The position numbers and the translations under genes were made by a program. The notes below the pieces were generated by a model that was given only the letters and a program-made list of their open reading frames with translations, did no database searches and was not told the origin of the DNA. Shown in pieces: positions 1 to 3,731 of a DNA stretch of 3,731 nt (position 1 is its first letter; each line of letters opens with the position of its first letter). This DNA comes from a plasmid: assembly GCF_988243305.1 (NCBI RefSeq), contig NZ_OZ547141.1; one strand, 5' to 3'.

Positions 1-457
<457 letters not shown>

Positions 458-627: not shown

Positions 628-1304
<677 letters not shown>

Positions 1305-1332
1305 TGTCAGCTTGTTTTTATGATATGAGAAC

Positions 1333-1361
1333 TTGAGATCCTTTCTATCTCGTCGTAATCT
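1333..1361 (+). promoter_or_regulatory. RNAII (replication primer) promoter: -35 TTGAGA 1333-1338, -10 TAATCT 1356-1361
   Basis: Same hexamers and 17-bp spacing as the pMB1/ColE1 RNAII promoter as I recall it (TTGAGATCC...CGTAATCT); sits immediately upstream of the RNAI-complementary region. Confidence 0.75.
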
Positions 1362-1371
1362 CTTGCTGTGT

Positions 1372-1479
1372 AAACGAAAAAACCGCCTTGCAGGGCGGTT
1401 TTTCGAAGGTTCTCAGAGCTACCAACTCTTTGAGCCGAGGTAACTGGCTTGGAGGAGCGCAGTCACCAAAACTTGTTCT
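1372..1479 (-). ncRNA. RNAI antisense copy-number control RNA (about 105-108 nt)
   Basis: Minus-strand sequence acaagttttggtgactgcgctcctccaagccagttacctcggctcaaagagttggtagctctgagaaccttcgaaaaaccgccctgcaaggcggttttttcgttt closely resembles p15A/ColE1 RNAI and ends in the G/C hairpin plus U-tract terminator. Confidence 0.8.
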
Positions 1480-1482
1480 TTC

Positions 1483-1512
1483 AGTTTAGCCTTAACAGGC
1501 GCATGACTTCAA
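1483..1512 (-). promoter_or_regulatory. RNAI promoter (-10 TAAACT, -35 TTGAAG on the minus strand)
   Basis: Hexamers read directly upstream of the RNAI 5' end; 18-bp spacer; position analogous to the ColE1 RNAI promoter. Confidence 0.55.
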
Positions 1513-1971
1513 GGCTAACTCCTCTAATTCGGTTACCAGTGGCTGCTGCCAGTGGCGATAAGTCGTGTCTTCTCGGTTTGGATTCAAGTCGATAGTTACC
1601 GGATAAGGCGCAGCGGTCGGACTGAACGGGGGGTTCGTGCATACAGTCCAGCTTGGAGCGAACGACCTACACCGGGCCGAGATACCAACAGCGTGAGCTA
1701 TGAGAAAGCGCCACGTTTCCCGAAGGGAGAAAGGCGGACAGGTATCCGGTAAGCGGCAGGGTCGGAACAGGAGAGCGCACGAGGGAGCTTCCAGGGGGAA
1801 ACGCCTGGTATCTTTATAGTCCTGTCGGGTTTCGCCACCTCTGACTTGAGCGTCGGTTTTTGTGATGCTCGTCAGGGGGGCGGAGCCTATGGAAAAACGC
1901 CATCGGCGCGGCCTTTGTCCCTGGCTTCGGCTTTTTGCTCACATGTTCTTTCCGGCGTTATCCCCTGATTC

Positions 1972-1980
1972 TGTGGATAA
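1972..1980 (-). promoter_or_regulatory. DnaA box (TTATCCACA)
   Basis: Exact consensus 9-mer on the minus strand within cggttatccacagaatcag, the same context as the DnaA box downstream of the pMB1 origin as I recall it. Confidence 0.5.
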
Positions 1981-2112
1981 CCGTATTACCGCCTTTGAGT
2001 GAGCTGACACCGCTCGCCGCAGTCGAACGACCGAGCGTAGCGAGTCAGTGAGCGAGGAAGCGGAAGAGCGCCTTATGTGACATTTTCTCCTTACGCTCCT
2101 CTATGCCGTTCT

Positions 2113-2129
2113 GCATCCTGTCCGGATGC
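2113..2129 (-). terminator. Short hairpin (6-bp stem GCATCC/GGATGC, 5-nt loop) directly after the rom stop codon; possible weak terminator
   Basis: Inverted repeat read directly from the sequence; no U-tract follows on the rom strand, so intrinsic-terminator function is doubtful. Confidence 0.3.
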
Positions 2130-2130
2130 G

Positions 2131-2325
2131 TTATATCCCGGTAAGATTTTCCGCTTCAAAGCGTGTCTGTATGCTGTTCTGAAGTTCTTCCGCGAGTTCG
2201 TGCAGCTTCTCACACATGGCGGCCTGTTCGTCAGCATCAAGTGCGTCCAGTTTTTCGAGCAGCGTCAGGCTCTGGCTTTTTATGAATCCTGCCATGTTGA
2301 GTACGGTTTGCTGCTGCTTGTTCAT
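2131..2325 (-). CDS. rom: Rom/Rop RNA one modulator protein (64 aa)
   Basis: ORF-track protein MNKQQQTVLNMAGFIKSQSLTLLEKLDALDADEQAAMCEKLHELAEELQNSIQTRFEAENLTGI aligns closely with ColE1 Rop (MTKQEKTALNMARFIRSQTLTLLEKLNELDADEQADICESLHDHADELYRS...); it is oriented toward the origin as in ColE1. Confidence 0.9.
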   Translation of the reverse strand: MNKQQQTVLNMAGFIKSQSLTLLEKLDALDADEQAAMCEKLHELAEELQNSIQTRFEAENLTGI

Positions 2326-2413
2326 CTTTCTGTTTTCTCCGTTCTTTCTGTCATCTGCGTTGTGTGATTATATCGCGTACCACTTTTCGACTGTTTTACC
2401 GTCGGTATTCTGC

Positions 2414-2447
2414 TGTCTGACTCTTTGACGGGCATTTCTGTCAGACA
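2414..2447. repeat. Inverted repeat, 8-bp arms TGTCTGAC / GTCAGACA with 18-bp spacer, in the rom-mobC intergenic region (function unassigned)
   Basis: Read directly from the sequence (arms 2414-2421 and 2440-2447). Confidence 0.8.
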
Positions 2448-2515
2448 ACACTGTCACTGCCAAAAAACTGCCGTGCCTTTGTCGGTAATTCGAGCTTGCT
2501 GACAGGACAGGATGT

Positions 2516-2557
2516 GCAATTGTTATACCGCGCATACATGCACGCTATTACAATTGC
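2516..2557. repeat. Inverted repeat, 12-bp arms GCAATTGTTATA / TATTACAATTGC (11/12 complementary) with 18-bp spacer, about 50 bp upstream of the mobC-like start; candidate operator or promoter element
   Basis: Read directly from the sequence; an adjacent short palindrome GCCCTG-gt-CAGGGC lies at 2556-2569. Confidence 0.75.
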
Positions 2558-2608
2558 CCTGGTCAGGGCTTTGCCCCGACACCCATGTCAGATACGGAGC
2601 CATGTTTT

Positions 2609-2932
2609 ATGACAAAACGAAGTGGAAGTAATACGCGCAGGCGGGCTATCAGTCGCCCTGTTCGTCTGACGGCAGAAGAAGACCAGGAAATCAGAAAAAG
2701 GGCTGCTGAATGCGGCAAGACCGTTTCCGGTTTTTTACGGGCGGCAGCTCTCGGTAAGAAAGTTAACTCACTGACTGATGATCGGGTACTGAAAGAAGTT
2801 ATGAGACTGGGGGCGTTACAGAAAAAACTCTTTATCGACGGCAAGCGTGTCGGGGACAGGGAGTATGCGGAGGTGCTGATCGCTATTACGGAGTATCACC
2901 GTGCCCTGTTATCCAGGCTTATGGCAGATTAG
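2609..2932 (+). CDS. mobC: MobC/MbeC-like relaxosome accessory protein with N-terminal ribbon-helix-helix DNA-binding fold (107 aa); family assignment is from recollection, not a search
   Basis: ORF-track protein 2585..2932; preferred start is the second ATG at 2609, which has a GGAG 9 nt upstream (2596-2599). After a basic N-terminal tail (TKRSGSNTRRRAISRP), the segment VRLTAEEDQEIRKRAAECGKTVSGFLRAAAL has the strand-helix-helix pattern of RHH proteins. Context is a ColE1-family replicon next to rom. Confidence 0.6.
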   Translation: MTKRSGSNTRRRAISRPVRLTAEEDQEIRKRAAECGKTVSGFLRAAALGKKVNSLTDDRVLKEVMRLGALQKKLFIDGKRVGDREYAEVLIAITEYHRALLSRLMAD

Positions 2933-3008
2933 CTTCCAGGGGAGAAAACTGTCGAAAACAGACGGTATGAACACTGTAAGCTCCCAAAGTGATCACCACT
3001 CGCTTTCA

Positions 3009-3022
3009 TGCATAGCTATGCA
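3009..3022. promoter_or_regulatory. Perfect 14-bp palindrome TGCATAGCTATGCA; ArgR-box-like element of the cer accessory region
   Basis: Palindrome read directly; resembles the ArgR box half-sites TGAAT/ATTCA with one mismatch each; centred about 108 bp upstream of the XerC arm. Confidence 0.45.
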
Positions 3023-3096
3023 GCGAGCTGAAAACGATCCTGACGCATTTCCCCGGTTTTCTTAGGGTAAAACATCTCTTTTTGCAGTGTCTGTGT

Positions 3097-3121
3097 CAGA
3101 ATCGCGCTCAGCGCGATTCTG
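3097..3121. repeat. Perfect hairpin: 11-bp arms CAGAATCGCGC / GCGCGATTCTG with 3-nt loop, abutting the XerC arm
   Basis: Read directly from the sequence; no flanking T-tract on either strand, so not a canonical intrinsic terminator. Confidence 0.85.
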
Positions 3122-3122
3122 T

Positions 3123-3152
3123 GGTGCGTACAATTAAGGGATTATGGTAAAT
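3123..3152. other. XerC/XerD core recombination site: XerC arm GGTGCGTACAA 3123-3133, central region TTAAGGGA 3134-3141, XerD arm TTATGGTAAAT 3142-3152
   Basis: Matches the ColE1 cer core GGTGCGTACAA-TTAAGGGA-TTATGGTAAAT from memory, with the 8-bp central region typical of cer-type rather than dif-type sites. Confidence 0.8.
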
Positions 3153-3168
3153 ACAATTGGTTAAATTA

Positions 3169-3206
3169 GGGGTCTGACGCTCAGTGGAACGAAAACTCAC
3201 GTTAAG
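3169..3206. repeat. Tn3 38-bp terminal inverted repeat (bla-proximal end, IR-R)
   Basis: GGGGTCTGACGCTCAGTGGAACGAAAACTCACGTTAAG matches the Tn3 terminal repeat as recalled; followed by the standard Tn3 sequence leading into the bla stop codon. The flanking 5 bp outside the repeat is AATTA (3164-3168), an AT-rich target. Confidence 0.9.
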
Positions 3207-3315
3207 GGATTTTGGTCATGAGATTATCAAAAAGGATCTTCACCTAGATCCTTTTAAATTAAAAATGAAGTTTTAAATCAATCTAAAGTATATATGAGTA
3301 AACTTGGTCTGACAG

Positions 3316-3731
<416 letters not shown>

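Follow-up and report, generated by a model that had tools for sequence, protein, structure and literature searches.

A cer-type site adjoining a Tn2-type transposon remnant in a small NikA-encoding ColE1-like plasmid

The closest described systems are the cer site of ColE1, in which the Arg box lies 98 bp from the XerC arm (PMC2409434), and the corresponding site of NTP16. Sites of the cer type have a core of 28-30 bp, in which 11-bp arms for XerC and XerD enclose a centre of 6-8 bp, preceded on the XerC side by ~180-190 bp of accessory DNA that contains a single Arg box. In ColE1-like plasmids rcd and RNAII share the same direction (PMC2831885). The XerC/XerD core architecture is also common to psi of pSC101 and to chromosomal dif (PMC5357621); according to the literature psi employs ArcA in place of ArgR, and the centre of dif, which is FtsK-dependent, is 6 bp long. 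A group of ColE1-like plasmids that encode NikA and carry no relaxase was defined around pCERC7 by Moran and Hall (2017, cited in PMC9282650), the title of which indicates that the cargo beyond the resolution site varies within the group. Among transposons, Tn1, Tn2 and Tn3 diverge beside res, and Tn2, which carries the blaTEM-1b framework, is the commonest variant and is often mislabelled as Tn3 (Partridge, 2015; PMC4611040).

The site described here lies in a plasmid of 3,731 bp, the whole of which was analysed and is referred to as the window. It shares with ColE1 cer the 30-bp core, the distance from the core to the Arg box, the orientation to the origin and the length of the accessory region, and differs from it in accessory DNA of 38-51% identity, at 6 of the 18 positions of the Arg box, in the unconserved -10 hexamer of Pcer and in the unrelated DNA to the right of the core. 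As in NTP16, the accessory DNA is found directly downstream of nikA and the two are 85.8% identical, whereas the NTP16 core (GGTGCGCGTAA-TGAGACG-TTATGGTAAAT) has a 7-bp centre and 73% identity to the core of the window, and the transposon remnant of NTP16 is located elsewhere, upstream of nikA. The accessory DNA of the window is found in neither psi nor dif. The transposon-derived DNA resembles Tn2 in its exact 38-bp end, blaTEM-1, tnpR, the res-proximal variant found on most resistance plasmids and a 5-bp duplication that is seen in the parent, but it is a remnant without tnpA and the second end, in which the break falls at the centre of res site I.

Layout of the plasmid

The window is a complete circular plasmid, identical (100%, same length) to 'unnamed5' of Klebsiella oxytoca strain 45 (NZ_CP138772.1). 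The start of the record falls inside blaTEM-1, and the two parts of the gene (445 + 416 = 861 bases) constitute a complete reading frame over the circle junction. The remaining content of the plasmid is an origin, rom, oriT-nikA, cer and a remnant consisting of one transposon end, bla, tnpR and part of res. The features are listed below with coordinates, strand and, in brackets, the basis of the assignment.

1-445, minus strand: blaTEM-1, 5' part (annotation and base count across the circle junction)
628-1185, minus strand: tnpR resolvase, intact, 185 aa (WP_001235713.1 annotation and open reading frame list)
1186-1296, no strand: res remnant, comprising the region of sites III and II with the left half and centre of site I (transposon homology)
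1289-1296, no strand: deletion junction, 8-bp identity TATAACAT (three-way comparison)
1374-1474, minus strand: RNAI of a ColE1-type origin (Rfam RF00106, 94.6 bits)
2131-2325, minus strand: rom
2609-2932, plus strand: nikA (annotated as MobA), relaxase accessory protein, 107-aa ribbon-helix-helix (NCBIfam MobA and NTP16 comparison)
2933-3122, plus strand: cer accessory sequences, expected PepA/ArgR binding region, XerC side (NTP16 identity and conservation in 11 sites)
3007-3024, no strand: Arg-box homologue CATGCATAGCTATGCAGC with palindromic centre TGCATAGCTATGCA (aligns with the ColE1 Arg box)
3040-3121, plus strand: homologue of the Rcd-coding part of cer (predicted fold like that of relatives)
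3123-3133, plus strand: predicted XerC-binding arm GGTGCGTACAA (identical to ColE1 cer)
3134-3141, plus strand: 8-bp central region TTAAGGGA (identical to ColE1 cer)
3142-3152, plus strand: predicted XerD-binding arm TTATGGTAAAT (identical to ColE1; most conserved block of the family alignment)
3153-3168, no strand: 16 bp of the original cargo side, ACAATTGGTTAAATTA (runs into the retron segment in transposon-free plasmids)
3164-3168, no strand: AATTA, transposition target (duplicated at both transposon ends in NZ_CP116926.1)
3169-3206, plus strand: 38-bp terminal inverted repeat GGGGTCTGACGCTCAGTGGAACGAAAACTCACGTTAAG, the bla end of a Tn2-type transposon (exact repeat)
3316-3731, minus strand: blaTEM-1, 3' part, continuing at 445-1 (RefSeq annotation of NZ_CP138772.1 and open reading frame list)

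Core and accessory DNA of the site

The segment 3123-3152, GGTGCGTACAA-TTAAGGGA-TTATGGTAAAT, matched the core of ColE1 (NC_001371.1, 3909-3938) at 30 of 30 positions, and a search of the 3,731-bp window with up to five mismatches allowed located no second core-like site. An exact match of 30 bases to the ColE1 core rules out chance. An earlier note, made from the DNA sequence alone, had recorded an exact cer-like core at these positions and about 190 bp of accessory sequence ahead of it, and both claims were borne out, as were all the coordinates that it gave. The gene upstream stops at 2932, which leaves 190 bp (2933-3122) ahead of the XerC arm, and homology to the cer family was found over this segment. 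The same note had termed the upstream gene mobC-like; its position was right, and the gene itself was identified as nikA.

The product of nikA scored 113 bits against the NCBIfam MobA model (cut-off 80) and was identical to the NTP16 protein at 106 of 107 residues, which places the plasmid in the pCERC7/NTP16 group. No relaxase gene was present in the open reading frame list or the annotation of the window plasmid. A 20-nt inverted repeat upstream of nikA (2516-2535/2538-2557, 85% complementary) is probably the oriT repeat of this group, the members of which have a conserved oriT with 20-bp inverted repeats. A second inverted repeat, of 11 nt, is located at 2411-2450.

These data make it very probable that 2933-3152 is the cer-type multimer-resolution site of a small NikA-encoding ColE1-like plasmid, that the transposon inserted outside the site and that a deletion came later; the function of the site is predicted by analogy with ColE1. 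The site is of a known, textbook cer type in an already described plasmid group, and for basic biology it therefore carries little weight. It is of practical use for annotation. None of the records examined annotates cer, the feature column giving either 'none' or an overlapping hypothetical open reading frame, and nikA is named MobA in RefSeq or 'nikA protein' in some GenBank records.

The window and ColE1 were aligned with nine other plasmid sites, which were picked across the range of BLAST similarity. All 11 sites had in common a palindromic Arg-box homologue (TGCATAG..ATGCA), accessory blocks with T-tracts, a GGTGCG...AA arm, a centre of 6-8 bp and a nearly invariant TTATG(G/T)TAAAT arm. 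Aligned to ColE1 and related sites, as the earlier note had proposed, the core was identical to that of ColE1, and the accessory DNA did show the similarity to cer accessory sequences on which that reading depended. By segment, identity over 2933-3122 to cer-like sites other than ColE1 ranged from 65 to 93%, with NTP16 at the value given above. The relationship to ColE1 was weak but above that of shuffled sequence; the global alignment score exceeded the shuffled mean by 6.5 SD and was equalled by 0 of 300 shuffles. The combination of NTP16-type accessory DNA and a ColE1-type core indicates that the site is a mosaic.

The Arg-box homologue at 3007-3024 is separated from the XerC arm by 98 bp, and this distance was 97-99 bp in 11 of the 11 sites. 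Against the general consensus the box matched at 12 of 18 positions, a score which was not significant alone, as 174 positions of the window, counting both strands, reached at least 12 of 18. Recognition by consensus score was therefore dropped, and the box was identified by homology and spacing, by which it is the likely homologue of the ColE1 Arg box. RNAI is located on the minus strand at 1374-1474, so RNAII is on the plus strand and is co-oriented with cer. On that strand the core follows the accessory DNA, which faces the incoming RNAII, the orientation expected of a ColE1-like plasmid.

By analogy with the work on ColE1 cer (PMC2409434; PMC5357621), host PepA and ArgR would, in a plasmid dimer that carries two sites in direct repeat, bind the ~190 bp of accessory DNA at each, ArgR occupying 3007-3024, and would wrap the two sites around each other in a manner that permits intramolecular recombination only. 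XerC on 3123-3133 and XerD on 3142-3152 would then act across the 8-bp centre. The first strand exchange would be made by XerC, and processing of the Holliday junction so formed would yield two monomers.

The Rcd-homologous region (3040-3121) has a predicted fold resembling that of its relatives, and a perfect 12+12 palindrome (3097-3108/3110-3121) is situated directly ahead of the XerC arm. At this position the stem of the relatives is shorter and is followed by TTTT. The ColE1 promoter Pcer was read here as TTGCAT, a 15-bp spacer and TAAAAT, the same spacer length as published (PMC5935869); the equivalent in the window is ATGCAT, 15 bp and TGAAAA. Given this poor -10 equivalent, the Rcd checkpoint may not operate in the window plasmid. 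The promoter scan accepts spacers of 16-18 bp and, as that of Pcer is 15, missed even the ColE1 promoter.

Origin of the plasmid and the deletion at res site I

The 38-bp repeat starts at 3169, 16 bp past the XerD arm. No second 38-bp repeat was found in the window with up to eight mismatches allowed, which indicates that the window carries a remnant rather than a transposon, and tnpA was absent from both the open reading frame list and the annotation of the plasmid. The remnant has a length of 2,859 bp, including 8 bp in common with the backbone, and on its far side it terminates in a deletion junction rather than in a transposon end.

The 38-bp end is common to Tn1, Tn2 and Tn3. A segment of 111 bp by res was 100% identical in ~3,460 plasmid records, with a second class of ~1,370 records at 80-90%, and silent differences from bla of pBR322 appear to fit the blaTEM-1b framework. 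On the basis of the commonest res variant, the work of Partridge cited above and the blaTEM-1a/1b differences, Tn2-type appears to be the better label for the element. Of the Tn3 terminal repeat in the earlier note, the exact 38-bp end stands; the element is of the Tn2 type and only its remnant is present.

Two larger plasmids, NZ_CP116926.1 (11.8 kb, Mali) and NZ_CP051740.1 (9.7 kb, USA), agreed with the window at every one of 3,739 bases, reading around the circle from 1289 to 1296. The order in NZ_CP116926.1 is cer...GGTTAAATTA, the transposon end, bla, tnpR, res and the start of tnpA, which is cut by IS6100; then mphR, mrx, mph(A), IS26, the 3' end of tnpA, the second transposon end, AATTA, CTATTGGTGAG... 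and an intact retron.

The closest relatives without the transposon are ColE1-like plasmids of ~4.05 kb that encode NikA and carry a retron. One of these, NZ_CP066843.1, was 99.8% identical to window 1289-3168 with four differences in 1,880 bp. Only one, at 3109, is within cer, where it is the central base of the palindrome (C vs G); the other three are at 2143-2144 (adjacent, near the 3' end of rom) and 2556. The Rop accession is WP_001485273.1 in the window lineage, as against WP_001041640.1. In a second transposon-free plasmid, CP099083.1, the 236-bp cer region was 100% identical to that of the window. The earlier note had asked what originally lay beyond 3168. In the transposon-free plasmids this position is followed by CTATTGGTGAG..., a small open reading frame, a retron reverse transcriptase and a Se72-family effector, the stop codon of which falls at a TATAA corresponding to window 1289-1293. 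The original DNA was thus a small open reading frame and then a Se72-family retron. In NZ_CP066843.1 (1-1789 and 3665-4051) the sole cargo is the retron, consisting of the reverse transcriptase and a 67-aa Se72-family effector, together with the small open reading frame, which has repeated FDGK-LRDA motifs; all this cargo is gone from the window plasmid.

Three sequences define the deletion: intact res site I, read in NZ_CP051740.1 (TGTCCGATAATTTATAACATTTCGTACG), the backbone at the effector stop codon (AAAAGGTATAACATCGTGG) and the junction in the window (TGTCCGATAATTTATAACATCGTGG). Res site I starts at 1277, has its central AT at 1290-1291 and is cut after the centre. Transposon homology reaches 1296 (in >3,400 plasmid records) and backbone homology begins at 1289, and these limits place the crossover inside the common 8 bp, TATAACAT. 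The central AT of site I is the point of strand exchange by resolvase (PMC3241657). The sequence of the window is obtained exactly if 8,117 bp are deleted from the Mali type in one step, or 5,972 bp from the USA type. The 1289-1296 junction was not found in other plasmid records or in 5,426 complete E. coli genomes. That the endpoint of the deletion lies at the centre of res site I is the mildly unusual point of this plasmid.

Ordinary short-repeat recombination or replication slippage, falling on res site I by chance, has in our estimate an even chance of being the cause. The two partners share an exact 8-bp direct repeat at the crossover and are otherwise dissimilar, as this explanation would predict. 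However, direct repeats of 8 bp or longer number 637 in the deletable interval of the parent, or 381 in that of the shorter parent, and only one of them touches the centre of site I, which is the one that was used; the prior for that repeat is accordingly ~1 in 381 to 1 in 637. Longer direct repeats, 170 in number, were available in the parent and were left unused. The use of the single repeat at the site I centre points to some role of resolvase or of the bound site.

Promotion of the deletion by resolvase, whether it exchanged or cleaved strands at res site I or stalled replication while bound there, is an explanation that we hold almost evenly balanced, tilting slightly against it. It would account for a crossover that contains the central AT of site I and for the choice of that repeat, and tnpR is intact. 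Outside the 8 bp, however, the backbone partner matches site I at 4 of 12 and 3 of 8 positions, which is the level of chance, and wild-type Tn3-type resolvase requires two complete res sites. Furthermore the argument is post hoc and concerns a single event, and a literature search on resolvase at pseudo-res sites found no relevant precedent. Between a role of resolvase and chance the odds are roughly even. The more specific proposal, that the resolvase of the remnant itself triggered the deletion at res site I against a partner sharing only 8 bp, is a real possibility that we would nevertheless not favour. If true, a single event turned an 8-12-kb retron and macrolide-resistance plasmid into a minimal bla plasmid of 3.7 kb; if general, res site I would be a hotspot for the trimming of Tn2-bearing plasmids, leaving remnants that end inside res.

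Comparison with other plasmids shows the following history. A retron plasmid of ~4 kb received a Tn2-type transposon in AATTA, at a distance of 12-16 bp from the XerD arm, and IS6100, mph(A) and IS26 were later added to the transposon. A deletion of 6-8 kb then took place in the K. oxytoca plasmid and joined res site I to the stop codon of the retron effector within the 8-bp identity. With it the retron, the macrolide-resistance genes, tnpA and the second transposon end were lost. The lineage is a clear example of a small resistance plasmid that was built and then trimmed, by insertion next to a resolution site, accumulation of insertion sequences and deletion, with a bla-only replicon in another genus as the end product.

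A full transposon is present independently on the same retron backbone in NZ_CP039839.1 (241-250, 4390-4404), where the TATAA at the effector stop codon is duplicated. This TATAA is also the deletion endpoint in the window, which reflects either a shared hotspot or a coincidence. An origin of the window by way of NZ_CP039839.1 and two deletions was considered and dropped, as NZ_CP051740.1 and NZ_CP116926.1 have 0 mismatches, the latter has AATTA and one deletion is enough.

The right edge of the site and the transposon end

A sensitive BLAST search with 2933-3168 matched 2,193 plasmid records. In a sample of 50 rows taken across these records, matches that reached the core ended at window positions 3151-3163 (query 219-231), most of them at 3151-3158 (219-226), and 3168 was reached by the lineage of the window only. 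In the 11-site alignment conservation dropped immediately past the XerD arm, with 19-56% identity over 3153-3168. The DNA past the arm differs by plasmid and includes an adhesin gene, lsoB and exc2, among others; in the cer family, the DNA that adjoins the XerD arm on this side is freely replaceable. Homology of the family stops at the XerD arm, which indicates that the insertion is outside the site and interrupted nothing conserved. The transposon thus appears to adjoin the site without disrupting it, as the earlier note had proposed, and both core and accessory DNA appear intact.

In pSCU-172-5 (NZ_CP054358.1) NikA-type accessory DNA on the left and a ColE1 exc2 flank on the right are joined by an identical core. 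This composition indicates that the core marks a point at which backbone and cargo are swapped; the swap would fit Xer-mediated recombination as well as homologous exchange inside the core.

It was also considered that the site is present but impaired, either because DNA past 3168 is needed or because read-through from bla, or transposase at the transposon end, disturbs the binding of XerD. Only 16 bp separate the XerD arm from the transposon end, and transcription of bla is directed at the arm. A pattern scan detected no terminator between bla and the XerD arm, yet a hairpin in this interval is visible by eye. It has been argued that XerCD could be dislodged by transcription coming into cer from the side of XerCD (PMC2831885). 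However, exc2 of ColE1 stops 5 bp from the XerD arm and is likewise transcribed towards it, a natural precedent for transcription converging on the XerD side, and a requirement for DNA past 3168 is at odds with the end of family homology at the arm and with the different DNA that every relative carries beyond it. The junction between cer and the transposon end has also persisted: it is carried by six variants of the plasmid, each from a different country (China, USA, Mali, India, Tanzania and Bangladesh). We consider impairment of the site improbable.

The six records with this junction differ by insertion-sequence rearrangements elsewhere. Its distribution over six countries indicates that it is old enough to have spread and is compatible with persistence of the plasmid. 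In three records (CP034256.1, NZ_JBSTRF010000004.1 and NZ_JBREQM010000007.1) IS6100 is located ~150 bp from the start of bla, so that both tnpR and res are missing. The record CP034256.1 has the appearance of an error-rich concatemer, in which about three copies of the plasmid were assembled together. The Tanzanian sister plasmid has no annotated retron gene, and in it IS26 adjoins the origin region.

Transposition of Tn3-family elements is expected to duplicate 5 bp of the target. AATTA is present as one copy in the empty site and as one copy on each side of the element in NZ_CP116926.1, and the window keeps one. The presence of AATTA at both ends in a relative with 0 mismatches indicates a genuine transposition beside cer, and the AATTA within which the earlier note had placed the terminal repeat, at 3169 and 16 bp past the XerD arm, proved to be a real target duplication. 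That the 3168/3169 junction arose otherwise, by a deletion ending at the transposon end or by Xer-mediated capture of cargo, is scarcely credible: the window has one transposon end and no duplication, and the unrelated full insertion at TATAA in NZ_CP039839.1 first suggested an adjacent-deletion route, but NZ_CP116926.1, with AATTA flanking both ends and uninterrupted backbone beyond, already refutes this explanation unless the record is misassembled.

The centre and XerD arm of the core (3134-3152) match the inner end of the 38-bp repeat and its flank (3202-3220) at 15 of 19 positions in direct orientation, including an exact run of 9 bp, TTAAGGGAT; 1 of 60 shuffled cores did as well. Tn3 reportedly prefers targets near sequences that resemble its ends, and the likeness between 3134-3152 and 3202-3220 may echo this preference.
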